Origin: Bacteroidales bacterium
GTDB taxonomy: Bacteria > Bacteroidota > Bacteroidia > Bacteroidales > P3
DNA length: 64,000 nt
Assembly: GCA_045221575.1 (NCBI GenBank)
Contig: JBGUWU010000005.1
Span: 5,433 to 69,432, forward strand
Direction: 5' to 3'
Shown: in pieces, positions 1 to 13,065 of the stretch
Position numbering within the stretch: position 1 is the first letter of the stretch
Layout of the letters: every line of letters starts with the position of its first letter
The notes under the pieces: generated by a model
Seen by the model: only the letters and a program-made list of their open reading frames with translations
What the model was told of the DNA's origin: nothing
Databases searched by the model: none
Program-made: the position numbers and the translations under genes

Positions 1-103
1 CTACAACACAAGAAATATTAACTTCTTTTTTATCCATAAAATATTCAGTAATCTGCTGAACATTGGTGCCGTTTCCAGAAGCGAATAAAGCAATGTTTTT
101 CAT
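1..103 (-). CDS. purN: phosphoribosylglycinamide formyltransferase, first 34 codons only (gene runs off the left edge)
   Basis: Absent from the ORF track because it is truncated by the window edge. Reverse-strand ATG at 103-101 reads MKNIALFASGNGTNVQQITEYFMDKKEVNISCVV, a typical PurN N-terminus (FASGxGTN). Confidence 0.6.
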   Translation of the reverse strand, partial: MKNIALFASGNGTNVQQITEYFMDKKEVNISCVV

Positions 104-136
104 AATAGATTATATTTTGATTTTATCTTATTTGTT

Positions 137-694
137 TTATCTTATTTGTTCTATCTTATTATTTTCTTTTATTATAAATATTGAAGAGGGATTGGAGTTG
201 TTTGCCTCTTCTCTTTGTGCATGACTGACGTAATCGGCTTTTGTTAAAAAAGATTTATCTATATCTGAAAAGTTTTTTGGAGAAGGTGAGCCAGAAAAAT
301 TAGCAGAGGAACTGACGATAGGATAAGGGAATTCACAAAAAAGTTTTTGAAGGAAATCAGTCTTAGCAATACGAATACCTAAATACTCATTAAAAGAAAG
401 ATTTTTCAACGGCAGAACCTTAATACCTTTATAGAGAATAGTTGTAGGGATATTTTTCTTTTCGTTTTCTTCTATTAAATCTATAGCTTGTTGAGGTAGA
501 TGTTCTACATATTGAGATAACATTTGAATATCTTTAACCAAAACAATAAAACTTTTATTTTTATCTCTACCTTTTATCTCCTTTATCTTCTCTATAGCAG
601 AAACATTCAAAGCATCACAACCTATACCCCAGATAGTATCTGTTGGGTATATAAGTATTTCACCCTTTTGTAGTATTTCTGCTTCTTTCATCAT
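137..694 (-). CDS. tsaC: L-threonylcarbamoyladenylate synthase (YrdC/TsaC domain)
   Basis: 185-aa ORF with YrdC-family motifs IYPTDTIWGIGCDA and SSSANFSGSPSP. ATG start confirmed. Confidence 0.85.
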   Translation of the reverse strand: MMKEAEILQKGEILIYPTDTIWGIGCDALNVSAIEKIKEIKGRDKNKSFIVLVKDIQMLSQYVEHLPQQAIDLIEENEKKNIPTTILYKGIKVLPLKNLSFNEYLGIRIAKTDFLQKLFCEFPYPIVSSSANFSGSPSPKNFSDIDKSFLTKADYVSHAQREEANNSNPSSIFIIKENNKIEQIR

Positions 695-697
695 AGG

Positions 698-1009
698 TTA
701 TTTAGCCAATTTTTGCATTAGTTTAGGATTGTCTAAGTATGTTTGCATATCCTTATCATAAACATCTTCAGAAATGTTATAATGTTTTAGTATGCTTTGT
801 TTATATTCTTGCATAAGTTGTTGTCTCTCTTCTTTGCTGAGGTTGTTGTCCATCGTCATACGCTCTGCTTTTGACATATCTGTCATAATCTGTAACATAG
901 TTGCAGGCTGTATGCTTACTTTTGGTAGTTTCTTATCTTTGTTTCCTGAGCAAGCGAACAGAGAAAGGAATATAAATAATAGTAATATGTATTTTATTTT
1001 CGCTATCAT
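698..1009 (-). CDS. small lipoprotein, DUF4296-like
   Basis: 103 aa with lipobox LSLFAC. Its stop lies 3 nt from the tsaC start. Family name is from memory only. Confidence 0.55.
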   Translation of the reverse strand: MIAKIKYILLLFIFLSLFACSGNKDKKLPKVSIQPATMLQIMTDMSKAERMTMDNNLSKEERQQLMQEYKQSILKHYNISEDVYDKDMQTYLDNPKLMQKLAK

Positions 1010-1014
1010 AGAGT

Positions 1015-1896
1015 TTAAAGTCTTTGAAGAACAGTTTCTATAAGAGTATTCATTGATTGGTGATAATCTTTTGCAAAAGAACCTTGAAGCCTATTAGCAA
1101 CTACATTACAAATAGTTAATACATTATGACCAAGACTTTTTCCTAAACAATATAAAGCAGACGTCTCCATTTCATAGTTTGTTGTTGGAACGCCATTATA
1201 AGAGAATAAAGGAAGAAGATTATTTATGTTTTTTTCTCTAAGAGATAAGCGTAGTTCTCTTCCTTGTGGGCCATAGAAACCTGGTGCTGTTATTGTTATT
1301 CCTTTTCTTATATCAAACGCAATTTTATCCAATAGCTCTTGAGAAGCTTTTGCTCCGTATGGAACAGGCAACAAAGCATTCCAATCCATGAAATTAATGA
1401 AAGAGTGTTGCAGTTCTTCTTCTACAACATCGTGATCTAACTCATAAAACCACATCATTCCATCTATACCAACCACATATTCACTACAGATATATGTGTT
1501 TATATCCATATCTTTTTGTAAAGCTCCTGTGGTTCCAAGTCTTATAAGATTGAGAGCAGTCTTTTCTGTCTTTATCTCTCGTGTTTTAAGGTTAATATTC
1601 TTGCAAGCATCTAACTCTGTAAGGACTATATCAATATTATCTACACCCATACCTGTAGAAATAGCCGTAACTCTCTTGCCGTTGTATGTTCCTGTGTGTG
1701 CAGTTATCTCTCTGTTGCTTTTCTTTACCTCTATCGTAGAAAAAAAACTACTAACATTTTCTACACGTCCAGGATCTCCTACAAGGATAACATTTTCTGC
1801 TAACTCCTCAGGAAAAAGTCTTATATGATAAAGACTTCCATCTTCAGCAAGAGTAAGTTCTGAACTTAGAAAATTTTTACTTTCCTTACTTTCCAT
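1015..1896 (-). CDS. nucleoside phosphorylase (PNP/UDP phosphorylase family)
   Basis: 293 aa with ISTGMGVDNIDI and YEMETSALY motifs typical of the family. Substrate cannot be assigned. Confidence 0.75.
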   Translation of the reverse strand: MESKESKNFLSSELTLAEDGSLYHIRLFPEELAENVILVGDPGRVENVSSFFSTIEVKKSNREITAHTGTYNGKRVTAISTGMGVDNIDIVLTELDACKNINLKTREIKTEKTALNLIRLGTTGALQKDMDINTYICSEYVVGIDGMMWFYELDHDVVEEELQHSFINFMDWNALLPVPYGAKASQELLDKIAFDIRKGITITAPGFYGPQGRELRLSLREKNINNLLPLFSYNGVPTTNYEMETSALYCLGKSLGHNVLTICNVVANRLQGSFAKDYHQSMNTLIETVLQRL

Positions 1897-2870
1897 TATC
1901 TATTTCTCTTTAAAAGGTTACGGATAAGAGTTATAAGGTTTTGTTTTCTTTCTCCTTCAACATCTATCTTCTCCACACTCTCTATTGCTTTCTCAGAATA
2001 TTGTTTTATTAAGAACTCCACATCTTTTCTTACCTCATATTTCTCAAACAATCCTTTAACCTCAGCTATTTTCTTTTGAACATCAATATTTTTTTCAGTG
2101 TATAGTTCAATCAAACGTTGTCTATCTTGTTCAGAAGCTTTATCTAATGCAGATAAATATAATATTGTTTTCTTGTTGTCTGCTATGTCAGTACCAGAAA
2201 CCTTGCCGAACTCTTTTAAATCACTCCAACAATCTAAGACATCATCTTGCAATTGGAAAGCAATACCTAAATATAAGCCTACCTCTGCAAGAAGATTCAT
2301 ATTCTCTTTAGAAGCGTTGGCAACAATAGCACCCATTTTCAAAGAACCAGCAAGTAAGATACTTGTCTTTAAGCTTATCATGGTGATGTACTCTTGAATG
2401 CTTACATCATTTCTTGCTTCAAAAGTCATATCGTAAGCTTGTCCTTCGCACACTTTTATCAAAACAGAGGTTATGGTCTTAACTAAAAAAGGAATCTTAT
2501 CTTCTGAACAATTCATAAGTTGTTCGTATGCCATAGCATAGATAACATCGCCTGAGAGAATGGCTTTATTTATACCATATTTTTGATAAACAGTTGGCTT
2601 GCCTCTACGAAGAGGTGATAAGTCCATAATATCATCATGAACTAAGGTAAAGTTATGCAATAACTCTACAGCAATAGCAGGATATTCAGCTTCTTCTAAG
2701 TCATCGCTGAACATATTTGCAGCTAATAACACCAAGAGAGGTCTTATTCTTTTTCCACCTTGATGCATTGCATACTCTATTGGTTCATATAAACTCAAAG
2801 GCTGTTTTTCAAATTTTTTGTTATCTATTATTGTGGTAACTCTATTTTGTAATTCTTCTAAACTATACAT
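1896..2870 (-). CDS. polyprenyl diphosphate synthase
   Basis: 324 aa with both Asp-rich motifs (LVHDDIMD, FQLQDDVLD). 1-nt stop/start overlap with the downstream gene. Confidence 0.9.
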   Translation of the reverse strand: MYSLEELQNRVTTIIDNKKFEKQPLSLYEPIEYAMHQGGKRIRPLLVLLAANMFSDDLEEAEYPAIAVELLHNFTLVHDDIMDLSPLRRGKPTVYQKYGINKAILSGDVIYAMAYEQLMNCSEDKIPFLVKTITSVLIKVCEGQAYDMTFEARNDVSIQEYITMISLKTSILLAGSLKMGAIVANASKENMNLLAEVGLYLGIAFQLQDDVLDCWSDLKEFGKVSGTDIADNKKTILYLSALDKASEQDRQRLIELYTEKNIDVQKKIAEVKGLFEKYEVRKDVEFLIKQYSEKAIESVEKIDVEGERKQNLITLIRNLLKRNR

Positions 2871-2904
2871 ATTACTATTGTCTATTAGTTTGTTTTTTCA
2901 CCTG

Positions 2905-2912
2905 CAAAGATA
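2905..2912 (-). promoter_or_regulatory. Bacteroidota -7 promoter box (TAnnTTTG)
   Basis: Plus-strand caaagata = TATCTTTG on the minus strand, 35 nt upstream of the polyprenyl synthase ATG (2870). Confidence 0.55.
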
Positions 2913-2919
2913 CTATTTT

Positions 2920-3068
2920 AATTAGAAATGAGAGATTAGAAATTTTATTTAATTAGAAATTAGTAATCAGAAATTAAAAATGAGTGGATTAACGATTACA
3001 ATCTTTTAGTCGTTTTGTGTTACTATCAGCAAGGATTTATTCGTAATCACTCATTTCTAATCATTAAT
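2920..3068. repeat. ORF-less copy of the heptad-repeat (AATTAGA/AATGAGA) inverted-arm element
   Basis: aattagaaatgagagattagaaatttt and aattagaaattagtaatcagaaattaaaaatgagtggattaacga on the left. tcgtaatcactcatttctaatcattaat on the right. The arms aaatgagtggattaacga and tcgtaatcactcattt are imperfectly complementary. Confidence 0.7.
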
Positions 3069-3105
3069 AAAAAAAGGGGATAAGATAAATTAATTATCTT
3101 ACCCC
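3069..3105 (-). terminator. rho-independent terminator of iorA
   Basis: Hairpin ggggataagata/tatcttacccc at 3076-3105, followed on the minus strand by a 7-T run (plus-strand A69-A75). Lies 26 nt after the iorA stop. Confidence 0.7.
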
Positions 3106-3130
3106 ATGATATGAAAAATACATTAAAAGT

Positions 3131-4744
3131 TTATTTTCCTTCAGCTAATTTTTGTAATCTACGTTTCTTTTGTCCCCAAACGATACAATCTCTTCTTGGA
3201 ATGATAACGCTGACACCTTTATAAGCTATCTCTTCTTTCATAACTTTGACATTTTCTTCGTGGTTCTTTGCCAAAGGATTGATAACTCTTATGTGTTCTT
3301 TCTCAACTCCAAGACCCATGCAGATACTTTCTATCTTGCCTGTTGCAGAAGACTTTTGAGCTCCTGTCATTGCAGTAATATCATTGTCCAAAATAATAAC
3401 AGTAACAGCAATATTATCGTTGCAGCAATCCAAAAGGCCTGTCATACCACTGTGAGTGAAAGTACTATCTCCGATAACAGCAACAGTTGGTTTAAGGTCT
3501 GCTTCTTGAGCTCCTTTTGCCATAGTTATACTTGCACCCATATCAACAGTAGTATAGATAGCGTTGAATGGAGGTAAAGCACCTAAAGTATAACAACCTA
3601 TATCAGAAAATACTCTACTATCGCCAAAGTCTTTCATTGCTTCGTTAAGAGCAAGGTAAGAATCTCTGTGAGGACAACCATCACAAAGCTTTGGAGGACG
3701 AGGAGCAACCAATTCAGGAATTTCAAATCCTTCTGGTACTTCTACTCCGACAGCTTTACCAACTGAGTTTGGAGAAAGTTCGCCATCTCTTTGAATAGTT
3801 CCGTCTAATCTTCCGTGAATAGGTTTAGAAATATGTAACAAACCTTTGATAAGTCTTTCATATATAGGTTGTCCTTCTTCAACAACAAGAAGTTCATCAC
3901 TTTCGTTGTAAAGTTTTTTCAACAAACCTTCTGGCATAGGATATTGAGAAACTTTCAAAACAGAATAAGGACATTCTTTATCTTTGAAGTTTTCCATTAA
4001 ATAGTTATAAGCTAAACCACAAGCCACAATACCAAGTTTTTTGTCCTTACCTTCGTATAGGTGGTTAAACTCTGATGTTTCGCTTTCTTTAAGGAAATCT
4101 TCTTGTTTTTTGATAAGAGATTTGTAATGACGTTTAGCATTAACAGGCAATAAAATATATTGACGTTTGTCTTCAGGAAGAGTAAGATTGTTTTGTTTTC
4201 TAACAACATCTTTTCTTTCTACTGCTGCACGAGAGTGAGCCAAACGAGTAGTTACTCTAATCATTACAGGGATATGGTATCTTTCTGATAATTCAAAACC
4301 ATAATGTACCATATTATAAGCCTCTTGTTGATTGCTTGGTTCAAGACAAGGAATCATAGCAAAGTCTGCATATTGACGAGAATCTTGTTCATCTTGAGAA
4401 GAGTGCATACTTGGGTCATCTGCAGCAATGTAGATAAGACCACCATTTGCTCCTGTAATAGCAGAGTTCATAAATGGGTCAGCAGCAACATTCATACCAA
4501 CGTGTTTACAGCAGAACATTGCACGTTTTCCTGCATAAGACATACCTATAGCAGCCTCCATAGCAGTTTTTTCATTTGCAGCCCAATTGCTTCTTATTCC
4601 TAATTCTCTTGCTTGTTTTGAATCTTGTATATATTCTGTTATTTCTGTAGAAGGTGTGCCTGGATAAGCAAAGACACCTGACAAACCAGCATCAATAGCT
4701 GCCTGTGCAATAGCCTCATCACCTAATAAAAGTAATTTATTCAT
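3131..4744 (-). CDS. iorA: indolepyruvate:ferredoxin oxidoreductase alpha subunit (TPP enzyme)
   Basis: 537 aa with TPP-binding region GDSTFTHSG, DIGCYTLG and CDGCPHRDSY. Layout as in Bacteroidales IorA. Confidence 0.8.
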   Translation of the reverse strand: MNKLLLLGDEAIAQAAIDAGLSGVFAYPGTPSTEITEYIQDSKQARELGIRSNWAANEKTAMEAAIGMSYAGKRAMFCCKHVGMNVAADPFMNSAITGANGGLIYIAADDPSMHSSQDEQDSRQYADFAMIPCLEPSNQQEAYNMVHYGFELSERYHIPVMIRVTTRLAHSRAAVERKDVVRKQNNLTLPEDKRQYILLPVNAKRHYKSLIKKQEDFLKESETSEFNHLYEGKDKKLGIVACGLAYNYLMENFKDKECPYSVLKVSQYPMPEGLLKKLYNESDELLVVEEGQPIYERLIKGLLHISKPIHGRLDGTIQRDGELSPNSVGKAVGVEVPEGFEIPELVAPRPPKLCDGCPHRDSYLALNEAMKDFGDSRVFSDIGCYTLGALPPFNAIYTTVDMGASITMAKGAQEADLKPTVAVIGDSTFTHSGMTGLLDCCNDNIAVTVIILDNDITAMTGAQKSSATGKIESICMGLGVEKEHIRVINPLAKNHEENVKVMKEEIAYKGVSVIIPRRDCIVWGQKKRRLQKLAEGK

Positions 4745-4797
4745 AGATATGTATTTTTTTTATGATTGTTCCTTTGATTTTTTTTACTTTGAAAACG

Positions 4798-4805
4798 CAA
4801 AATTA
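4798..4805 (-). promoter_or_regulatory. Bacteroidota -7 promoter box (TAnnTTTG)
   Basis: Plus-strand caaaatta = TAATTTTG on the minus strand, 54 nt upstream of the iorA ATG (4744). Confidence 0.5.
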
Positions 4806-4850
4806 TAAACATTTTTTTATTTATGCAAATTATCTATCAAATAATTATTG

Positions 4851-5879
4851 TTATTGTTTATCGTATTCTAAAACGTCTTCACAGAAAAAATCTAATTGTA
4901 TTCCTGCTTGAGCAAACATTTCTTCTGTTTCTTGACCTGAATGATATTTATTTTGACAGACAACTCTCTTTATTCCACAATTGATAATCATCATAGCACA
5001 AGTACGACAAGGAGTCATTGTGCAATAGAGAGTGGCTCCTTCTAAAGCTATGCCTCTTTTTGCTGCTTGACAGATAGCATTTTGTTCTGCATGTACTGTA
5101 CGAACACAATGATTAGATATGTTTCCTTCTTCGTCTATTTGTTTTCTAAAAAGATGTCCTACCTCATCGCAATGAGGTAATCCTGTTGGAGAACCAACAT
5201 AACCAGTTACAAGTATTTGTTTATTTTTTACTATAACACAACCACTTCTTCCTCTATTGCAAGTAGCTCGTTTTGCTACTGTTTTAACTATCTCCAAAAA
5301 ATATTTGTCCCAAGGTGGTCTTGTCTTGTTTTGAACTCTATCTAAAACATGTTCTACTTGTTTTCTGAGAGTTGTTATATCTCCGTCATTATTAAAAGAA
5401 AAGTCAGATAATTGCATACAAGCTTTTATATTTTGCTTGTTTTCATCTTTAGAATCCATCTCTCTCTGTTCGTTTTGTTGAAATGTTTCAAAGCTGACAT
5501 TATCTGTCTCACTCTTCCTTTGAGTTATACGTTCGTATCTCGTCTTTATATCTGCATCAACAGAGAATAAAAGAAACTCGGAGTTTTCTTTCAAATATTT
5601 TATTTCTTTTACGTTGCGTATGCTTTCTATTATACAGTTTTTACCCTCTTTCTTAGCCATAGCAAGCAGACCTTTTGCAATAAAATCTGCTCCCTCTTTT
5701 TCTCTTTCTTGATTTGCAACCATAGTCATAGTATCTCTGTTGCTTTCAAGCCCAAGTTCTTTTATTCTTTTGTTAAGAAAATCCCTTGCAGAGAAATGAA
5801 TGAATCCTTTCTCTTTCAAATACTCCACTATAGTGCCTTTTCCTGCTCCTAAAGTGCCGGTTATTCCTATTACTATCAT
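4851..5879 (-). CDS. fusion protein: N-terminal P-loop nucleotide-kinase-like domain + C-terminal dCMP/CMP deaminase (ComEB type)
   Basis: 342 aa. Walker A GITGTLGAGKGT at residues 5-16. Zinc-deaminase motifs HAEQNAI and PCRTCA in the C-terminal ~150 aa. Confidence 0.8.
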   Translation of the reverse strand: MIVIGITGTLGAGKGTIVEYLKEKGFIHFSARDFLNKRIKELGLESNRDTMTMVANQEREKEGADFIAKGLLAMAKKEGKNCIIESIRNVKEIKYLKENSEFLLFSVDADIKTRYERITQRKSETDNVSFETFQQNEQREMDSKDENKQNIKACMQLSDFSFNNDGDITTLRKQVEHVLDRVQNKTRPPWDKYFLEIVKTVAKRATCNRGRSGCVIVKNKQILVTGYVGSPTGLPHCDEVGHLFRKQIDEEGNISNHCVRTVHAEQNAICQAAKRGIALEGATLYCTMTPCRTCAMMIINCGIKRVVCQNKYHSGQETEEMFAQAGIQLDFFCEDVLEYDKQ

Positions 5880-5888
5880 ACCCTCAGT

Positions 5889-5921
5889 AAATTAGAAATT
5901 AGTAATTAGAAATGAGTAATT
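5889..5921. repeat. heptad-repeat arm (left) abutting the stop codon of the four-helix-bundle ORF
   Basis: aaattagaaattagtaattagaaatgagtaatt, made of 7-nt units AATTAGA/AATTAGT/AATGAGT. Its last base overlaps the TAA stop codon of the ORF (5920-5922). Confidence 0.8.
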
Positions 5922-6285
5922 ATTGTTGATTATTTATTTTCTGTGTTTTTGTTATTGACACTAATAATTTAATAATCTCAGAACACTTATCTTTTAATTC
6001 ATGAAATGTAATATCGTCTATATAATCACTTTCATATAACAATTCCAACCAATACTCTGTCTCTCCTGCTTCTTTCGTTGCAATATATAACTTAGTATAA
6101 AAATCAGGCTTACTTTGTGCGTAAATAGATTCCTTTACATTTGCACCAATGCTTGTTCCACTTCGTAATATTTGCTTTGATAAAACATATTCATTTTTTG
6201 TTTCGCATAAATACTTATATAGTCTAATAATTGTCAAAGCAAAACTTTTTGTTTTTATCAAAACTATATTATTGGGCTGAAACAT
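5920..6285 (-). CDS. four-helix-bundle protein (23S rRNA intervening-sequence protein / Avd-like family)
   Basis: 121 aa. QILRSGTSIGANVKESIYAQSKPDFYTKLYIATKEAGETEYWLELL matches the family signature (RxxxSIxxNIxEG...F...A..S..E). Confidence 0.9.
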   Translation of the reverse strand: MFQPNNIVLIKTKSFALTIIRLYKYLCETKNEYVLSKQILRSGTSIGANVKESIYAQSKPDFYTKLYIATKEAGETEYWLELLYESDYIDDITFHELKDKCSEIIKLLVSITKTQKINNQQ

Positions 6286-6330: not shown

Positions 6331-6837
6331 TTAATTTGTTTTATGTTTAAATTGTATTTTTGAAAATTCTTCGTTGGCTTTTACAATCTTTTCTTTCAAA
6401 GACTGTTTATAAGCGTGCATTTTTTTGTTTATATCTTCATCAGTTAAAGCAAGTATTTCCATAGCCATAATTGCTGCGTTCAAAGATCCATTAACTGCCA
6501 TCACACTTACAGGAACAGCAGGAGGCATTTGCAACATAGAAAGCACAGAGTCCATTCCTTCAAAAGAAGATTTAACAGGCACACCAATAACAGGCAATGT
6601 TGTCTCTGCTGCTATTGCTCCCGGAAGAGCGGCAGCCATTCCTGCGGCAGCTATTATCACTTTTATTCCTCTACCTTCTGCATTTTGTGCAAACTCACTT
6701 ACTTCCTTAGGAGTACGATGAGCAGACAAAGCATTTATTTCAAAAGGTATCTCTTGTTGATCAAGGAAAAGGGCAGCCTTCTCCATTACTGAGTAATCAG
6801 AAGTGCTGCCCATTATTATACTAACCAAAGGTTTCAT
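6331..6837 (-). CDS. purE: 5-(carboxyamino)imidazole ribonucleotide mutase
   Basis: 168 aa with IIMGSTSDY and the AAGMAAALPG core typical of PurE. Confidence 0.95.
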   Translation of the reverse strand: MKPLVSIIMGSTSDYSVMEKAALFLDQQEIPFEINALSAHRTPKEVSEFAQNAEGRGIKVIIAAAGMAAALPGAIAAETTLPVIGVPVKSSFEGMDSVLSMLQMPPAVPVSVMAVNGSLNAAIMAMEILALTDEDINKKMHAYKQSLKEKIVKANEEFSKIQFKHKTN

Positions 6838-6846
6838 ATCAAGTTA

Positions 6847-8085
6847 TTATTCTTTTGGTTCTACTTTTGGAAAATCTGTATGGAATGTTGGATAAGTGTA
6901 GTTATCTCCAAGTATATGAGTTAAGAAATCTTTATACATTGGAGTAAAGCACAATGTTTCTGCATCAAAGTACTCTTCTGGTAAAGGACGATTGCCTATC
7001 TTACCCATATCTATTGCAGAACAGTTGTATTCTTCCAACTCATCAAAGTTGCAAACCTTGTTCAATACAGGCATTTTGCCATAATCTTCTCTTAGAAGTA
7101 AATCAACAGCTTTATCAGCCAAAGCTTGTGTCATTCTTCTATCATAAGCTGAACACATACCGCTTCTTGGATAATAACCTGTTATTTGAGCGCGTGCATC
7201 TATCTTAAGTTTTGCAGATATTTCACTTGCTATTGTTCCACTGACTCCTCCCAAACGAGCATGACCATACTCATCTTGTTCTGTAGAAGCATAGACTACA
7301 TCTGTTGTTCCTGTTTGTTCATTATACCAACGCACACCTTCACTTACAGGAATAATCAATGCACCATCAGGACTTTCCTTATATGCTTTCTGAACCAAGT
7401 CAAAGAAATGTTCTTTCTTCTCCTTTGTCATTTCAACCTCAGGAATAAGGCTTAAACAAGCACCTCCAAAAGTAGCAGTACCTGTTAGCCAACCTGCATC
7501 TCTTCCCATTACTTCCATAACCATTATTCTTGCATGAGATTCTGCTGTAGTCTTCAATCTTGCTGCAAAATCTGCAACGCCTAATGCTGCTGAAGGGAAT
7601 CCAGGACAAGTAACGGCATCTATTTTTTTACCATTGAACTCATGCCAAGTAAGAGTTCTAAGGTCGTTATCTATTGTTTTTGGGAAACCTATTACAGGTA
7701 TTCCTTCCTGTTCGTATAAACGTTTTGCAGCTCCATTTGTGTCATCACCACCAATAGTAACCAATACGTCTATGCCATATCTTTTAAGGTTACGCATTAC
7801 TTGAGGAACTCTATCTTCAGGATTTTTCTTTGATGGGAAAGGATTAGTACGTGAAGAACGTAATGCTGTACCACCATAAAGAGGATTGTAAGGCTTTTGT
7901 GTTAAATCTACAACATCACCATCTCCCAAAAGACCTTTCCAACCACGTTTTATACCATAAACTTTAAAACCAAGCATAGTAGCACGGTTTCTAACTGACT
8001 CTATACTGCTGTTTATTGCTGGAGTATCACCACCTCCTGAAAGTATGGCAAGAGTTTTGCCCTTAAAAAGTTTTTCTTCTCTCAT
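6847..8085 (-). CDS. pfp: pyrophosphate-type 6-phosphofructokinase (PFK family)
   Basis: GGDDTNGAA and PKTIDND are the PPi-PFK variants of GGDG/PGTIDND. The track ORF reaches 8145, but the ATG at 8085 (MREEKLF...) lies downstream of the -7 box at 8143-8150, so the 20-codon extension is rejected. Confidence 0.8.
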   Translation of the reverse strand: MREEKLFKGKTLAILSGGGDTPAINSSIESVRNRATMLGFKVYGIKRGWKGLLGDGDVVDLTQKPYNPLYGGTALRSSRTNPFPSKKNPEDRVPQVMRNLKRYGIDVLVTIGGDDTNGAAKRLYEQEGIPVIGFPKTIDNDLRTLTWHEFNGKKIDAVTCPGFPSAALGVADFAARLKTTAESHARIMVMEVMGRDAGWLTGTATFGGACLSLIPEVEMTKEKKEHFFDLVQKAYKESPDGALIIPVSEGVRWYNEQTGTTDVVYASTEQDEYGHARLGGVSGTIASEISAKLKIDARAQITGYYPRSGMCSAYDRRMTQALADKAVDLLLREDYGKMPVLNKVCNFDELEEYNCSAIDMGKIGNRPLPEEYFDAETLCFTPMYKDFLTHILGDNYTYPTFHTDFPKVEPKE

Positions 8086-8142
8086 TTTAATATATTTTTT
8101 GATTATTATTTCTTTTTTTTGCCTAAACAAACTTAAACGTTG

Positions 8143-8150
8143 CAAAGATA
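8143..8150 (-). promoter_or_regulatory. Bacteroidota -7 promoter box (TAnnTTTG)
   Basis: Plus-strand caaagata = TATCTTTG on the minus strand, 58 nt upstream of the pfp ATG at 8085. Confidence 0.55.
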
Positions 8151-8423
8151 TAAAGTTTTTATTTTATAACAAAATAAACTTGATTAATATTGATTATCTT
8201 GTCTTCTTTTTATGTTTTTAGGAATACATATATGCAAAATTCTTTTACTTTTTTTCAAAATAGAAACCCTATTTTAGAAAACTAACGACAATTTGCTATA
8301 AGCGAAAAAAAGAATTATAGAATTTTATTGTCTTTGAATAGTTGTATAATTTTTTTGCAAACAAAACTGTCTTTTATAAGAAAAAATAATAGTTTGTTTA
8401 TCAATGTTTTATATCTACAGAAA

Positions 8424-8459
8424 AAAGATCAACTTTTAATTTTTTAAAAGTTGATCTTT
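8424..8459. repeat. perfect 14-bp-stem hairpin (aaagatcaactttt / aaaagttgatcttt)
   Basis: Read directly. The loop is aatttttt. It shares the core aattttttaaaagttg with the adjacent unit at 8465-8506. Confidence 0.8.
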
Positions 8460-8464
8460 GAGGT

Positions 8465-8506
8465 AAAAAGAGTTGATTTTAATTTTTTAAAAGTTGCTCT
8501 TTTTTT
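8465..8506. repeat. dispersed intergenic repeat containing the 16-mer AAAAAGAGTTGATTTT
   Basis: aaaaagagttgatttt at 8465-8480 is the exact reverse complement of the 16-mers at 44752-44767 and 55633-55648. ttgattttaattttttaaaagttg resembles 44800-44823 with 2 mismatches. Confidence 0.8.
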
Positions 8507-8536
8507 ACAATAATCAAAAAGTATAAATCTAAAATT

Positions 8537-8564
8537 AAAAAAAGAGATGAAATTATTTCATCTC
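8537..8564 (-). terminator. rho-independent terminator after the three-gene AT-rich cassette
   Basis: Hairpin gagatgaaa-tta-tttcatctc at 8544-8564 with a 7-T run on the minus strand (plus-strand A37-A43). There is also a T run on the plus side, so it is potentially bidirectional. Confidence 0.65.
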
Positions 8565-8660
8565 CCTTTTTTGATTGCTTTTAATTCTTATTTAGAATCT
8601 TTTGTTAAAGTGTAAATTCCTGCTGTTTACATTCCTTTTCCTAAAATATTTTTGTAAATA

Positions 8661-9041
8661 TTATTTATCCATTAACATTACAATAGGAACTGTTTTAACA
8701 ACACCACTATTTGCAGTATATTTATATATACCTACTTGTCTAAAACACTTGTTCCCTGTTGCATTTATAACTTGGTCATCATAATATGGACTACCTTCTT
8801 CATTATATATAAGAACTGTTAAACCTAAATACAAACCATCTTCTTTTCCTCTTGCAAGTGCAGTACCATTGTCCAGTGCTTGAAATACCTCAAAACTTGT
8901 TTCATTCATTTTCTTTCCTGTTTGTTCAAAGAAAGTCATTCCCGATTTTGAATTAATCGCTAATGAAATAACAAATAACACTAAAAAAGTGAAAACAATA
9001 CCCGTTAATACCCCGAGTAAATAAACCCAAATTTTTTTCAT
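8661..9041 (-). CDS. single-pass membrane protein of unknown function
   Basis: 126 aa. N-terminal TM helix IWVYLLGVLTGIVFTFLVLFVISLAI followed by a ~90-aa soluble domain. Last gene of the cassette. Confidence 0.7.
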   Translation of the reverse strand: MKKIWVYLLGVLTGIVFTFLVLFVISLAINSKSGMTFFEQTGKKMNETSFEVFQALDNGTALARGKEDGLYLGLTVLIYNEEGSPYYDDQVINATGNKCFRQVGIYKYTANSGVVKTVPIVMLMDK

Positions 9042-9081
9042 AAGACAAAATGTTTTTAATTATTAATTTTTGTATAAGCTT

Positions 9082-10188
9082 TTATTTAACTGATTTTTTA
9101 TACTCAAAAATATTTTCTCTTTTTTCTTTATCATATACACAAATATTTTTTGATTTTTCATATAAAATTAAATTTTGTTTTGAATCAATGTTTTCGTTTA
9201 AAGAATAAACACCATTATAATAACTTTTTTCTATTCCAAAAAACAAACTCTTTTTTTTATCGGGATTAGATTTAAATATTGGACAATAAAGTGCTTGTGT
9301 CAATAGATGTTTTATAACTACTTTTTTTCTACATTTTTTAGATGTATCTTCATAGTATTCACATCTATAGCAGTGTCTTTTAGATATTATTTCATAACTA
9401 ATGTTTTTTGAATGAACTTCAATAGGAAATGGATAATGTCTTTTTATTTTATAATTATGGCAATCGTTATACTTTTTACTTTGCAAAATATCATTATTTA
9501 TGTGCCAAATATAATAACTTTGTAATTGTAGAGGTTTTTTTGAAAATATGTTCTCTTCAAAATTATGAAAAACTACTTCTATCTCTGTTTTGTTATAGTT
9601 TTTTATTTCGTTTTTTATTAAATTTTTTACATCTATTTCTTTATTTTTGAGACTTATTTCGATAATCCGAAAACCTAAAAGTATCTTTTCCTCCTCACAC
9701 TTATGAGTAACAGCGATTTCTATAAATATAGGCGGTTCTAATAGATTATTTTTATTGTATATCTTCAAGTCTGCGGTAAAATCATTACCTTCATTATATT
9801 TAGATTCTAATTCGCAGGTATCGTAATATTTTTTAATATCAACTCTCTTTAATTTTGTGATTTTGCAAACAGAATCATAGTTAATTCTGTATTTACAATT
9901 GTTATGATTGCAACATATTTTAGGTATTTGGTAAGAAATATAAAACTCTTTGCTTGTATCGAAAACTTGTTTTATGTAATTTTTTGCATAATTATGTAGA
10001 TATGTTTCACCATTACATTCACAATCTTCTTTATGTCTGAAATGATGTTCTCTTTTGTCTCCAAGAACAGGAATCATTTCTCTCTCGCAACCAATACAAA
10101 AATATTGTTCATGTCTACTTTCTCCAGTAACCTTATCAATATTAACTATAGTACCTATTTTGTTTTTTGCATTAGAATAAGTTATCAT
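9082..10188 (-). CDS. CoiA-like Zn-ribbon + PD-(D/E)xK nuclease-fold protein with extra Cys clusters
   Basis: 368 aa. YFCIGCEREMIPVLGDKREHHFRHK (CxxC...HFxH ribbon), ETYLHNYAK helix, then DFTADLKIY...IFIEIAVTHK (D...ExK-like core). Additional CCNHNNC and CYRCEYYEDTSKKC clusters. Assignment is by motif only. Confidence 0.55.
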   Translation of the reverse strand: MITYSNAKNKIGTIVNIDKVTGESRHEQYFCIGCEREMIPVLGDKREHHFRHKEDCECNGETYLHNYAKNYIKQVFDTSKEFYISYQIPKICCNHNNCKYRINYDSVCKITKLKRVDIKKYYDTCELESKYNEGNDFTADLKIYNKNNLLEPPIFIEIAVTHKCEEEKILLGFRIIEISLKNKEIDVKNLIKNEIKNYNKTEIEVVFHNFEENIFSKKPLQLQSYYIWHINNDILQSKKYNDCHNYKIKRHYPFPIEVHSKNISYEIISKRHCYRCEYYEDTSKKCRKKVVIKHLLTQALYCPIFKSNPDKKKSLFFGIEKSYYNGVYSLNENIDSKQNLILYEKSKNICVYDKEKRENIFEYKKSVK

Positions 10189-10222
10189 AATAATGTTTAT
10201 TTTTTCTAATTTATATGTAAAA

Positions 10223-10963
10223 CTAAAGAGTTGATTGGGAAAAATCTAAATTATATTTAACATTTCCTATTTTATCTACAAATAATTTACAAACACAAAT
10301 TAATTCGGTAGGAGTATCATTGGTCCAAAAAGGAATAGAAATTTCAGATTGTTCTGTCATATCGATAATTTCTACCAATGTTTTTGCTTTTTGTTTACAT
10401 AATTTTTCTAATTTATTGCTATTATCGTCATTTTTTCCAAAAGAATATTTTTGTTTAGGGCTATAGAATATTTTTTTCTTAGAATAATCTTTTTCTTTCT
10501 TTTCTTCTTTAGGAACAAAATCTAGTCTCATATTAAAACATTCTGCAATCCTATTCAAAATGTCTATGCCTACAGAAAGTTGTCCTTTTTCTATTCTACT
10601 TAAATTTCCAGCATCTATTCTTATTGTTTGTGCAAGTGCTTTAGCAGTCAATCCTTTTTCTTTCCTCAAATCCTTAATTTTTTCTCCAAGTCTTTGCCGT
10701 TCTTTAAATATTTCATCTTTTTTAACCCATAGGAAACCTTCAAAATTTTCTTTATACATTTCTCTTGCTATGTCATTCCAAATAGATTTTATAGTTCCGT
10801 CATAATACTTATCAAACAAGGCAGAGAGTTTTTTTATAAAATAGTTTTTATTCTTTTCATTGATTTGATAGTTTAAATCACTTAAATATCCAATATAATA
10901 AACCTCATCCTCTTTTGCAATAACTTTTATTTGTTTCCTATTTTCAAATTTTATTTCTGTCAT
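10223..10963 (-). CDS. XRE-family helix-turn-helix protein with unknown N- and C-terminal domains
   Basis: 246 aa. HTH LRKEKGLTAKALAQTIRIDAGNLSRIEKGQLSVGIDILNRIAECFNMRLDF at about residues 98-150. The flanking ~90-aa domains have no motif I recognise. Confidence 0.75.
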   Translation of the reverse strand: MTEIKFENRKQIKVIAKEDEVYYIGYLSDLNYQINEKNKNYFIKKLSALFDKYYDGTIKSIWNDIAREMYKENFEGFLWVKKDEIFKERQRLGEKIKDLRKEKGLTAKALAQTIRIDAGNLSRIEKGQLSVGIDILNRIAECFNMRLDFVPKEEKKEKDYSKKKIFYSPKQKYSFGKNDDNSNKLEKLCKQKAKTLVEIIDMTEQSEISIPFWTNDTPTELICVCKLFVDKIGNVKYNLDFSQSTL

Positions 10964-11000
10964 ATTTTTATTTACTTTTTTAGTATTTAATTTTATTCTG

Positions 11001-11008
11001 CAAAATTA
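11001..11008 (-). promoter_or_regulatory. Bacteroidota -7 promoter box (TAnnTTTG) of the cassette, with -33 TTTG at 11029-11032
   Basis: Plus-strand caaaatta = TAATTTTG on the minus strand, 38 nt upstream of the HTH gene ATG (10963). CAAA at 11029-11032 gives about 20-nt spacing. Confidence 0.55.
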
Positions 11009-11048
11009 TAGTAAATATATAAATTAAACAAATTTTTTAATAAAAAAA

Positions 11049-11062
11049 TGTATTATAATACA
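11049..11062. promoter_or_regulatory. perfect 14-bp palindrome TGTATTATAATACA (operator-like site 1)
   Basis: Read directly. Self-complementary. An identical copy lies 22 bp away, centre to centre. Confidence 0.6.
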
Positions 11063-11070
11063 AAAAAAAT

Positions 11071-11084
11071 TGTATTATAATACA
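11071..11084. promoter_or_regulatory. perfect 14-bp palindrome TGTATTATAATACA (operator-like site 2)
   Basis: Identical to 11049-11062. The pair sits just upstream of the -33 element of the HTH-gene promoter. Confidence 0.6.
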
Positions 11085-11159
11085 TTATAAATTGTTTTAT
11101 TTAACAAGAATAAACTTTATTTACAAATCTTCTCCGTTTGCTTTATTTTAATTATCATT

Positions 11160-11747
11160 TTATAAGTCTTCTATAGCATTTACTTTCCCTTTATTGTAGT
11201 TAATATTATCCATATAATATAGCGATACATAACTATAAAAAGTCATTACATTTGCAATTGAAACTGTTATTATATTTCCATTCACATTAAAAGATGTTTG
11301 ATAAACACATCTATTCATATGAACTTCATGCATCTTACTATTATCATCCTTTGGCGTTGAATAACTATTCCATTCTTCTGTTTCCATTATTGGCGCCCCA
11401 TATTTTTGCATTAGCATTGTCTTTATATCCAAATAATTTGTATATAGTACTTGCCAAGTATCTGCATAATCAAATGAAACTCCAACTACTTGAACTTTTT
11501 TCTCTACATTTGGGAAAACATATATTCGACAGTTTGAATAACCTGCAAAGTTTCCCTTCAATGCTATAGCATCATCTGTTTTTGTTTCATATTTAAGTCC
11601 TTTTTGTTTTAATTTCTCTACAAATGTATTAACATTCATATCCATAGAAATTCCCAAAAATTTTAAATGTTCTTCTTTTTGTGCCATTGTGTTGCTTGCA
11701 CCTAAAAGAGTTAAAAGTGCAAAAAATAATAAAAATATTCTTTTCAT
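11160..11747 (-). CDS. secreted hypothetical protein
   Basis: 195 aa with signal peptide MKRIFLLFFALLTLLGASNTMAQ. No recognisable catalytic motif. Confidence 0.65.
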   Translation of the reverse strand: MKRIFLLFFALLTLLGASNTMAQKEEHLKFLGISMDMNVNTFVEKLKQKGLKYETKTDDAIALKGNFAGYSNCRIYVFPNVEKKVQVVGVSFDYADTWQVLYTNYLDIKTMLMQKYGAPIMETEEWNSYSTPKDDNSKMHEVHMNRCVYQTSFNVNGNIITVSIANVMTFYSYVSLYYMDNINYNKGKVNAIEDL

Positions 11748-11866
11748 AGTTTTTATTTGTTTGTTAATTTTTGCAAATTTAGTAATTTTTCTATTAAGTG
11801 CAAGGGTTTTAGGGTATTATTTTAAGTTCTATTTTTAAAATTTATGAACAGTCTGATGAAATTTTG

Positions 11867-11874
11867 TATTTTTG
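11867..11874 (+). promoter_or_regulatory. Bacteroidota -7 promoter box (TAnnTTTG)
   Basis: tatttttg, 22 nt upstream of the glycosyltransferase ATG at 11896. Confidence 0.55.
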
Positions 11875-11895
11875 CAAAAGGAAAAAATCAATAAG

Positions 11896-13065
11896 ATGAA
11901 AGAAGTGCAAACAATAGGTTATGATGCCAAAAGAATAGTCAGCAATGCTACAGGATTAGGTTCTTATAGTAGAACACTATTAGAGAGTTTAGCGAACTAT
12001 GATAAACAATTTTTATTATATGCCCCAAATAAAGGCAGAGAAGAACTTTATTCTTCACTATTAGATAAGGAAAATCTTATTTTTAAGTTCCCACATAAAA
12101 ACAATGGTAACATAGTTAGCAATAAAATACTTCAAAGACTATGGAGAGAAAAAGGAGTTGTTAAAGATTTACTAAAAGATAATGTAGAGGTTTTTCATGG
12201 TCTTACCGGACAGTTACCAAAAGGAATTAATAAGTCTGGTGTTAAATCTGTTGTTACTATTCATGACCTTATATTTTTTCCTCACCCTGAATGGTATTCA
12301 AAAATAGATGTCTTTATTTACAAGCAAAAGTTTTTCCGAACGATAAAAGAAGCTGATAAAATCATAGCTATAAGTGAATGTACTAAGAATGATATTATAA
12401 AGTATGGCAATGTTGAGGAAAGTAAAATAGAAGTAATCTATCAATCATATAATTCTATTTTTACTCAAGACATTTCACAAGAAGAAAAACAAAAGGTAAA
12501 ACAAAGATACTCTTTACCAGAGCATTTTATATTAAATGTAGGTACAATAGAAAGAAGAAAGAATGTCTTGCTTGCAGTTAAAGCATTGAAAGAGATTGTT
12601 CTTAACAATCCTTTGACAGAGCAACATCTTGTTATTGTAGGAAGAAAGACAGCTTATGCTAAAGAAGTAGAACAATATATAGAACAAAACAACTTAACAG
12701 ATAGAGTACATATTATTAATGGTGTTTTGTTTGATGAGTTGAAAGTATTGTATTCTTTAGCAGATTTATTTGTCTATCCGTCTATTTACGAAGGTTTTGG
12801 TATTCCTATTATAGAAGCTATTGCCAATCGTTTGCCTGTTGTTGCTTGCACAGGTTCTTGTTTAGAAGAGGCAGGAGGGGAATATTCCTTATACGTTGAT
12901 CCTACAGATGTAAAGGCGATGGCTGAAGCAATTCAAACATTACTTTATAATCAAGAAAAACGTAGTCTTGCAATAGAAAAAGGGCTACAACATATTCAAA
13001 GATTTGCGAATAATGATGTAGCCTTAAAACATATTCAACTATATAATCAACTGCTTAACAGTTAA
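11896..13065 (+). CDS. glycosyltransferase family 4 (GT-B, retaining)
   Basis: PSIYEGFGIPIIEAIA (E-x7-E region) and the GT4 N-terminal domain. The track start at 11872 is a TTG inside the promoter box, so I use the ATG at 11896. Confidence 0.85.
   Translation: MKEVQTIGYDAKRIVSNATGLGSYSRTLLESLANYDKQFLLYAPNKGREELYSSLLDKENLIFKFPHKNNGNIVSNKILQRLWREKGVVKDLLKDNVEVFHGLTGQLPKGINKSGVKSVVTIHDLIFFPHPEWYSKIDVFIYKQKFFRTIKEADKIIAISECTKNDIIKYGNVEESKIEVIYQSYNSIFTQDISQEEKQKVKQRYSLPEHFILNVGTIERRKNVLLAVKALKEIVLNNPLTEQHLVIVGRKTAYAKEVEQYIEQNNLTDRVHIINGVLFDELKVLYSLADLFVYPSIYEGFGIPIIEAIANRLPVVACTGSCLEEAGGEYSLYVDPTDVKAMAEAIQTLLYNQEKRSLAIEKGLQHIQRFANNDVALKHIQLYNQLLNS

Follow-up and report, generated by a model that had tools for sequence, protein, structure and literature searches.

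A mobile regulator and nuclease gene pair in a rumen Bacteroidales genome: a candidate conflict module

CoiA is reported to be a single-stranded DNA endonuclease, in which an N-terminal C2H2 finger is combined with a PD-(D/E)xK site of atypical form and with an extended C-terminal region (bioRxiv 10.1101/2024.02.06.579203). A CoiA-domain protein has also been reported among the anti-phage systems of E. coli (Vassallo et al. 2022, PMC9519451). Nuclease modules that are controlled by a regulator and carried on mobile DNA are a known kind of system. Here we describe a case in which a family of XRE-type helix-turn-helix (HTH) proteins is found with swappable nucleases. It was encountered in a 64,000-nt stretch, hereafter the window, of a rumen Bacteroidales metagenome-assembled genome (MAG; GenBank assembly GCA_045221575.1, contig JBGUWU010000005.1, positions 5,433 to 69,432), where window positions 9068-11119 encode an HTH protein and a 368-residue zinc-finger nuclease candidate. 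In the literature, no account was found of these HTH proteins or of nucleases paired with them. We tentatively read 9068-11119 as a compact, mobile, self-regulated two-gene nuclease conflict module that would serve defence or addiction, a reading with somewhat less than an even chance of being right.

The inserted unit and its empty site

An initial, sequence-only reading of this DNA had described three co-directional open reading frames (10963->10223, 10188->9082, and 9041->8661) as one acquired cassette. The three frames are present on the minus strand as described, with 34 nt between the HTH and nuclease genes and 40 nt between the nuclease gene and a membrane-protein gene. That the DNA was acquired, and is present in some strains and absent from others, is confirmed by an empty site in a sister strain. 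The contig of this strain (L170) was reached through a 99%-identical variant of the 126-residue membrane protein; it derives from a separate sequencing run and is collinear with the window. When L170 is compared with the window by blastn, positions 1-6161 correspond to 17835-11676 (96.7% identity), 6797-6825 to 11148-11120 (29 nt, 100% identity), and 6832-7403 to 9067-8497 (98.8% identity). Only 6 nt replace window 9068-11119, a segment of 2052 bp. Because the membrane-protein gene and its terminator are both present in the empty-site strain, they are resident, and the proposed three-gene cassette does not hold: the mobile unit is two genes, encoding the HTH protein and the nuclease candidate. 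Its features are as follows.

9068-11119, minus strand: inserted mobile unit, with palindromes, promoter, HTH gene, and nuclease gene; the sister strain is without it
9082-10188, minus strand: zinc-finger nuclease candidate of 368 residues, with a CoiA_N finger, a PD-(D/E)xK-like core, and a C-terminal Cys4
10223-10963, minus strand: XRE-family HTH protein of 246 residues, with Pfam HTH_3 at residues 96-149 and no Pfam match in the regions on either side
11001-11032, minus strand: promoter candidate, with a -33 element TTTG at 11029-11032, a 20-nt spacer, and a -7 element TAATTTTG at 11001-11008
11047-11086, no strand assigned: twin operator-like palindromes from a repeat search, with counterparts upstream of many HTH family members

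The edges of the insertion lie 156 nt 5' of the HTH start codon and 14 nt 3' of the nuclease stop codon. A target-site duplication and terminal direct or inverted repeats were sought around the insertion, and none was convincing; nor is there an integrase or transposase at the insertion. The pair is inserted into the spacer between an exported-protein gene and the membrane-protein gene, since homologous exported and membrane genes adjoin at 11-34 nt elsewhere. As the sequence-only reading had noted, the inserted DNA is AT-rich relative to its neighbours. The two lowest GC contents among the 48 genes of the window (mean GC 33.1%, sd 3.1) are those of the nuclease gene (24.0%, z = -3.0) and then of the HTH gene (25.9%, z = -2.4); the membrane-protein gene, at 30.4% (z = -0.9), is ordinary. 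Also in agreement with that reading, the flanking genes are housekeeping (PFK/pfp, PurE, GT4, alkaline phosphatase, and MreC), and no methyltransferase, integrase, or phage gene was called next to the insertion. An Rfam scan of 7900-12100 gave no match.

Several of these properties would also suit a selfish, homing-endonuclease-like element, which would cut an unoccupied site, be copied in by recombinational repair, and need no benefit to the host. Its target would be either the exported/membrane spacer or an HTH-only allele, and the HTH protein would serve as an autoregulator or a DNA-targeting subunit. In favour of this idea are the AT-rich composition and the precise presence or absence of the unit at an intergenic spacer of near-identical strains, without integrase, transposase, duplications, or terminal repeats. 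In addition, the body of the neighbouring exported gene has been swapped for another allele, which resembles the co-conversion of a flanking marker. However, the new allele is separated from the insertion by a 29-nt relic, which speaks against a single co-conversion event. With the evidence from related loci given below, homing is a serious but rather unlikely account of the unit.

The nuclease candidate and its regulator

All of the peptide motifs that the sequence-only reading had quoted are found in the 368-residue translation. The protein contains a C2H2 finger (C31, C34, H49, and H52), core residues E61, E128, D140, E157, K168, and E177 together with a Cys-bearing insert (C58, C92, and C108), and a C-terminal Cys4 (C273, C276, C286, and C302). 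In an alignment of 40 sequences (A1), residues H52, C58, E61, Y63, H65, C108, E128, D140, E157, H162, K168, and E177 are invariant, as are C273, C276, C286, and C302, while C31, C34, H49, and C92 are nearly invariant. Pfam places CoiA_N (PF25164) at residues 25-59 with a borderline score (26.1 bits vs. a cut-off of 26.3), and the same domain matches 39 of 40 family members, the best with E = 8.5e-13; the CoiA-type zinc finger that had been proposed is thereby supported. DUF7828 and DUF7830 overlap the CoiA_N residues in the family, and nothing relevant to these two entries or to PF25164 was found in the literature.

AF2 models of the whole protein and of the core have pLDDT values of 78.6 and 88.5, respectively. 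The predicted core elements occur in the order helix 8-26, the Cys-bearing insert, strands 72-79, 85-92, and 102-107, helix 114-118, and strand 122-128 (core-model numbering); D140 falls on core strand 2 and E157 on core strand 3. The invariant residues and this predicted alpha-beta-beta-beta-alpha-beta topology fit the PD-(D/E)xK core of the sequence-only reading. Database matches do not confirm the fold statistically. At the top of the Foldseek list for the core model, PD-(D/E)xK enzymes dominate (SwaI, Hjc, the R2 restriction-like endonuclease, EcoRV, MGME1, and cap-snatching nucleases), none of them significant (best E = 0.11, TM-score at most 0.34). The whole-protein search against the PDB gave nothing useful, the best relevant match being Can2 (E = 1.4), and PF06054 (CoiA_nuc) has no match at E <= 0.1 in any of the 40 family members. 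An hhalign comparison of the core with a PF06054-positive protein aligns the pattern E..G[FY][IV]AD..[FI]E[IV]xV[ST] over 32 columns (E = 0.032, probability 1.6%), pairing E128, D140, and E157 with EME..GYVAD..FEVQVS of that protein. Because the canonical ExK is replaced by E-I-A, the catalytic Lys must lie elsewhere, and K168 probably supplies it. Together, these findings make it likely, but not proven, that the 368-residue protein is a nuclease.

The same findings bear on the idea that the protein is a housekeeping counterpart of CoiA, which would resolve recombination intermediates in transformation or repair and happen to have a local regulator. The CoiA_N match is in keeping with this, as are the RefSeq records in which plasmid homologues are partly named 'competence protein CoiA family protein' and the comparable layout of CoiA, reported as a single-stranded DNA endonuclease (bioRxiv 10.1101/2024.02.06.579203). 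However, the sister strain is without the nuclease, the gene has the lowest GC content in the window, the distribution of the family is patchy, multi-copy, and tied to mobile elements, no member among the 40 sequences matches PF06054, and the nearest relative is only about 43% identical. Moreover, CoiA is typical of Bacillota, and in other bacteria YraN takes its place (bioRxiv 10.1101/2024.02.06.579203). A housekeeping role is highly improbable.

The nuclease family is large, comprising 1176 clusters at E <= 1e-30 or, at the looser threshold of E <= 1e-10, 3622. Some MAGs hold several copies, and there are tandem copies (L021, L023/L046, and L049/L054), which counts in favour of homing. No relatives were found in IMG/VR viral contigs. 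Homing-endonuclease-type genes are usually abundant in viral contigs, and this absence counts against homing. HTH-linked lineages of the family are interspersed among unlinked ones. Three relatives (P0050, P0040, and P0052) are longer at the C-terminus, at about 480-500 residues. The extension of P0050 matches a SLOG-type domain (YAcAr, PF10686), which suggests that SLOG-bearing members are ligand-regulated variants; that of P0040 has no Pfam match.

In PLSDB, 789 plasmids match the N-terminal half of the nuclease; 660 of them are conjugative, and most come from Enterobacteriaceae. One of these records, a Klebsiella IncFIB/IncHI1B plasmid (NZ_CP017986.1; L150, 5980-9002), was inspected: a 328-residue relative of the nuclease overlaps a UvrD/GajB-like helicase (679 residues) by 4 nt. 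This pair is like Gabija in arrangement, but its nuclease is different, and PADLOC recognises no system. In an Acinetobacter plasmid (NZ_CP048671.1; L152, 1685-6014), two HNH genes, one on either side of a SAM methyltransferase gene, precede a gene for a 'CoiA family protein'. Family members often occur in such arrays with other nucleases, another example being an upstream HNH protein with RHH-like repeats (L007/L008). In L014, a NUMOD1 protein, in which a GIY-YIG-like motif was read by eye, is encoded upstream of a family member.

The regulator shares with its homologues an N-terminal domain of about 85 residues and a highly conserved HTH (alignment A3); few relatives have its C-terminal extension of about 90 residues. 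In a profile search of PDB sequences, the HTH region matches PezA, SinR, HipB, C.AhdI (E = 3.3e-5), and C.BclI (E = 8.9e-4), while nothing credible was found for the N-terminal domain. In PADLOC the protein has generic HTH matches, including control-protein models. The earlier description of an HTH flanked on both sides by regions without assignment is accurate with respect to Pfam.

HTH relatives are encoded in 404 metagenome stretches. Eighty of these loci, together with look-up loci L060-L069, yielded 66 distinct HTH proteins, 57 of which have enough downstream sequence to judge. In 45 of the 57, the next gene encodes a nuclease of about 330-390 residues, either of the window's family (15 loci) or of the HNH_3 family (330-365 residues; 30 loci), in both cases at -32 to +12 nt. 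The pairing of HTH and nuclease genes is thus conserved; no homologue of the membrane protein was detected in the scanned HTH-centred loci. Another co-directional gene follows the HTH gene in 4 of the 57 loci, and nothing is adjacent in 8. One of these four genes encodes a 791-residue repeat protein (L071) with a GIY-YIG-like motif seen by eye and no Pfam match; the remaining three have no Pfam match either. In L070, where the gene caller missed the HTH gene, the HTH match is followed by a gene for a 310-residue PF06054 (CoiA_nuc) protein. The 98 flanking proteins of related modules are a mixture of defence, mobile, and housekeeping functions; among them there are 3 methylase matches, and no regular methyltransferase or other recurrent third partner.

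HTH proteins with 76-81% identity across 80% or more of their length are paired with either of two unrelated nuclease families. The HNH_3 family and the window's family share no domain (hhalign probability 0.04), and in the swapped pairs DNA homology is confined to the HTH gene with no more than about 160 nt on its 5' side. This limit matches the 156-nt leader, that is, the HTH-side boundary of the insertion in the window. The module is found on conjugative elements, on a plasmid, and in chromosomal islets; a Chryseobacterium plasmid carries the HTH gene with HNH. In L065 (5001-10492), the order is TraG, a lysozyme gene, the HTH gene, HNH_3, a 129-residue exported protein, a small HTH gene, and BrxA/B/C, while L125 and L144 have a homologous TraG, then the HTH gene, the window's nuclease family, and the same small HTH gene as L065. 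The slot of the module on Bacteroidales conjugative elements is fixed: after TraG and before a small HTH gene, which is the first gene of a cargo operon (BREX in L065). These loci establish one regulator family that is paired with interchangeable nucleases and widespread on mobile DNA.

For homing, the swaps cut both ways. The partners are of typical homing families, namely HNH_3 (a PADLOC 'HEase' and PHROG HNH endonuclease), GIY-YIG-like with NUMOD1, and PD-(D/E)xK-like, and the same slot is filled by different nucleases. Yet beyond the HTH gene the flanks of module loci are unrelated and their contexts very diverse; since homing needs homologous flanks, most of the spread was not by homing. 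'Empty' HTH alleles are also rare, given that 45 of 57 HTH genes have a nuclease.

The pair could also be a type II toxin-antitoxin system, in which the HTH protein would bind and neutralise the nuclease through its extra domains and repress the operon, and loss of a labile antitoxin would free the nuclease. The antitoxin-first order, the tiny gaps or overlaps, the presence of the module on mobile elements, the resemblance of the HTH to the PezA, HipB, and HigA antitoxins, and the presence of non-HTH domains that could bind a partner all agree with this. However, unrelated nucleases beside 76-81% identical HTH proteins are hard to fit with specific neutralisation, and the C-terminal extension is missing from most of the HTH family. 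Most members of the nuclease family have no such partner, and a multidomain nuclease of 368 residues is unlike the typical small toxin. The swaps favour transcriptional control over protein neutralisation, and for that reason a classical toxin-antitoxin system, which we consider distinctly unlikely, is ranked lower.

The leader of the HTH gene contains candidate control elements. Two copies of TGTATTATAATACA, a perfect 14-bp palindrome, lie at 11049-11062 and 11071-11084, 22 bp from centre to centre, and both fall within a perfect 17-nt inverted repeat (11047-11063/11070-11086). In many HTH family members a palindrome precedes the start codon by about 85-125 nt. The form TTGGCA-N4-6-TGCCAA, centred near -93, is a recurrent one, and TTGTA..TACAA types are found in the clade of the window's HTH protein. 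Bacteroidetes promoters follow the pattern TTTG-N19-21-TAnnTTTG. The window contains 6 matches to this pattern against 2.6 expected, a number reached in 5 of 100 shuffles; the remaining matches are likewise found immediately 5' of genes (e.g., 8143-8173 before pfp). By its sequence, the TAATTTTG-containing promoter candidate is plausible, but not proven. The palindromes and the promoter candidate lie within the insertion; the terminator that had been assigned to the cassette along with them does not, as it lies in DNA that L170 retains.

In the conflict module that we favour, the XRE-HTH protein would bind the two copies of TGTATTATAATACA, which immediately precede the -33 element, and would thereby set transcription of its own gene and of the co-transcribed nuclease, as a C-protein controls a restriction endonuclease. 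Because the inserted unit is without its own terminator, the transcript would read through into the resident membrane-protein gene and stop at the terminator of that gene. The 368-residue protein would be a metal-dependent DNA endonuclease, in which the C2H2 finger and the C-terminal Cys4 position a PD-(D/E)xK-like core acting through D140, E157, and probably K168. It might cut foreign DNA, such as that of phage or of competing mobile elements, and its substrate might be modified or of distinct structure. Alternatively, it might be a restrained toxin that is freed when the regulator is lost or inactivated, leading to abortive infection or addiction. These two options are favoured because the module is without a cognate methyltransferase. 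The extra N- and C-terminal domains of the regulator are likely signal-sensing parts, and the neighbouring exported and membrane genes would be resident islet genes rather than mechanistic partners of a cytoplasmic nuclease.

Several observations weigh against this reading. Searches do not establish the nuclease fold statistically (Foldseek E >= 0.11, no PF06054, and hhalign E = 0.032). The nuclease has no match in PDB sequence profiles, NCBIfam, PHROGs, or PADLOC, and its absence from the last two tells against a conflict function. PADLOC on six relatives left five blank and gave one weak DruB-model match, on the zinc finger of P0053. Just as the sequence-only reading could name no matching system, PADLOC-DB v2 finds none at the locus. 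In a scan of species-representative genomes, for which alignment A1 was too diverse and a narrower alignment (A2) was used, 46 of 49 loci of the nuclease family have no HTH partner, so that the family needs no such regulator. The palindromes lie upstream of the -33 element and not over it, and simple repression is thus not the obvious mode of control. The partner families (HNH_3 and putative GIY-YIG with NUMOD domains) are classic homing-endonuclease families. Finally, the nucleases repeatedly adjoin genes for exported or membrane proteins, and this the module as proposed does not explain.

Exported and membrane genes beside the module

The genes on either side of the insertion belong to the resident DNA. 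The sequence-only reading gave an incomplete picture of them, as it overlooked the exported-protein gene upstream. The resident features are as follows.

8537-8571, minus strand: terminator-like hairpin with a T-run, inside the 98.8% block (9067-8497) common to L170
8661-9041, minus strand: membrane/exported protein of 126 residues (TM126), with an N-terminal hydrophobic segment at about 5-28; 99% identical in the empty-site strain
11120-11148, minus strand: 29-nt relic of the 3' end of the 244-residue allele (..NKANGEDL*), after the stop of the 195-residue gene; 100% match to L170
11160-11747, minus strand: exported protein 'LIPO' of 195 residues, with a signal-peptide-like N-terminus and no Cys at the expected cleavage site

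Terminator-like sites around 8537-8571 number 3, against 0.5 expected, and the terminator is that of the resident membrane-protein gene rather than of the inserted unit. The exported-protein allele has 195 residues in the window and 244 in L170 (6090-6824); the two share the signal-peptide region alone, and the body of the gene (11149-11675) has no DNA homology to the sister strain. In L170 the gap between LIPO and TM126 is 34 nt. Homologues of LIPO, confirmed by phmmer, lie 11-12 nt upstream of TM126 in L154 and L159, and L167 has a 190-residue gene of unscored family 12 nt upstream of its TM126 homologue. The TM126 family has more than 300 matches, the named ones all in Bacteroidales MAGs, and listed relatives are about 50-62% identical; it is far better conserved than the window's nuclease (43% for the nearest relative). 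Neither TM126 nor the exported protein has a match in NCBIfam, PHROGs, or PADLOC, and TM126 has none in Pfam. Because its hydrophobic segment is at the extreme N-terminus, most of TM126 is probably outside the cytoplasm, and direct control of a cytoplasmic nuclease by TM126 would be unlikely.

Five further TM126 members were looked up. Three are directly followed by a nuclease and two are not; two or three are directly preceded by LIPO (L154, L159, and the unscored L167). The nuclease belongs to the window's family in L158-160. In L154 (4393-5133) and L162-L166, TM126 is followed, with an overlap or a 3-33-nt gap, by a NERD protein with a topoisomerase-type zinc ribbon; this protein is a second nuclease type at the same position beside TM126. 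LIPO homologues adjoin HTH-nuclease modules in L003, L071, L093, L135, and L138. A further signal-peptide family of about 130 residues, with a duplicated Y.LYPT.NMWTF..LD...G..WQVQWS motif, is encoded directly upstream or downstream of HTH-nuclease modules (L065 6572-6961, L008, L009, L046, L049, L094-L096, L108, L109, L115, L116, L118, L134, and L136); it has no match in Pfam, PADLOC, or PHROG. The order of modules relative to the exported and membrane genes varies, with the module before, between, or after them.

LIPO and TM126 are a conserved pair in their own right, which recurs beside various nucleases, and a looser link to the module cannot be dismissed. The families concerned (the 195-245-residue signal-peptide family, the 126-148-residue single-segment family, and the 130-residue family with duplicated YxLYPT..WQVQWS) might be tied to the nuclease in one of two ways. 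In an envelope-coupled defence, a perturbation of the envelope would be relayed to a cytoplasmic DNA-cutting effector, by analogy with Kiwa or Zorya. In the other, two-component selfish elements of a class not recognised before would colonise these conserved small genes, with the HTH protein (for regulation or targeting) joined to a swappable nuclease head, in Bacteroidales chromosomes and conjugative elements alike. The two forms are unlikely even when taken jointly. For homing as set out above, it is a point in favour that several nuclease types adjoin the same conserved small genes, while the variable order speaks against a single target site.

The 515-bp, AT-rich spacer 5' of pfp contains a perfect hairpin with 16-nt arms and a T-run (8424-8459) and an imperfect second copy (8477-8505), and contigs of three other assemblies of the same organism stop in it (about 8467-8562). 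These contig ends, between pfp and the membrane-protein gene, were first taken for strain polymorphism. They were not counted because they lie in a hairpin-rich spacer (8424-8571), the other side is unbroken, and L170 partly reads through. Elsewhere in the window, a gene at 5920-6285, between purE-like and dCMP-deaminase genes, encodes a 121-residue '23S rRNA intervening sequence protein' (PF05635, E = 3.5e-28). With the third-lowest GC content in the window (26.4%), this small gene, too, may have been acquired.

Comparison with known systems

The module is unusual in its conserved regulator and interchangeable effector nucleases, and in its fixed slot on conjugative elements, once directly upstream of BREX. 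If a role in defence or addiction is correct, it would add a widespread nuclease system to the repertoire of gut and rumen Bacteroidales. It would also provide the first functional handle on the large CoiA_N family outside competence, including the relatives on 789 plasmids, one of them paired with a helicase in the Klebsiella record, and a handle on several unannotated families of Bacteroidales exported proteins. The pair of empty-site and occupied-site strains is a natural experiment for mobility and phenotype.

CoiA of Streptococcus and Bacillus (PF25164 and PF06054) and the window's nuclease family share a C2H2-type finger detected by Pfam, a length of about 320-370 residues, a core Asp in beta-2 and Glu in beta-3, the atypical [FI]E[IV]xV[ST], and a long C-terminal region. 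Unlike CoiA, the window's family has no PF06054 match and contains a Cys-bearing core insert and an invariant C-terminal Cys4. The family occurs in Bacteroidales, on plasmids, and on conjugative elements, and it is strain-variable and outside the competence regulon. Neither PF06054 nor biological context thus places the protein with CoiA, and it should not be filed as such. The CoiA-domain protein of the E. coli screen is an earlier case in which a domain of the CoiA type, on mobile DNA, takes part in phage defence. The window's nuclease has no detectable similarity to PADLOC models, which we take to include the systems of that screen, and so is not a detectable member of the system with the CoiA domain.

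Free-standing phage homing genes (Seg/Mob, I-HmuI-like HNH_3, and GIY-YIG with NUMOD) belong to the same nuclease families as the sister modules. They also share with the unit its intergenic insertion, variation between close relatives, AT-richness, and lack of transposition scars. Unlike these genes, the nuclease here travels with a dedicated regulator gene, has unrelated flanks, and has no relatives found in viral contigs.

PezAT, HigBA, and HipBA have in common with the module an HTH-first two-gene operon, overlaps, and mobility. These XRE antitoxin pairs differ in that near-identical regulators with unrelated nucleases argue, in the present case, against specific neutralisation. RosmerTA shares the swapping of partners; the RmrA peptidase domain is absent here, and the PADLOC matches cover the HTH alone.

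The C.AhdI and C.BclI systems share an XRE-type HTH directly upstream of the nuclease, paired palindromic boxes, and mobility. They differ in that no methyltransferase is present here or recurs in related loci; in addition, the window's regulator is 2-3 times larger than C-proteins and has extra domains, and its boxes lie upstream of the -33 element. By analogy, the arrangement would work like a C-protein-controlled endonuclease without the methyltransferase.

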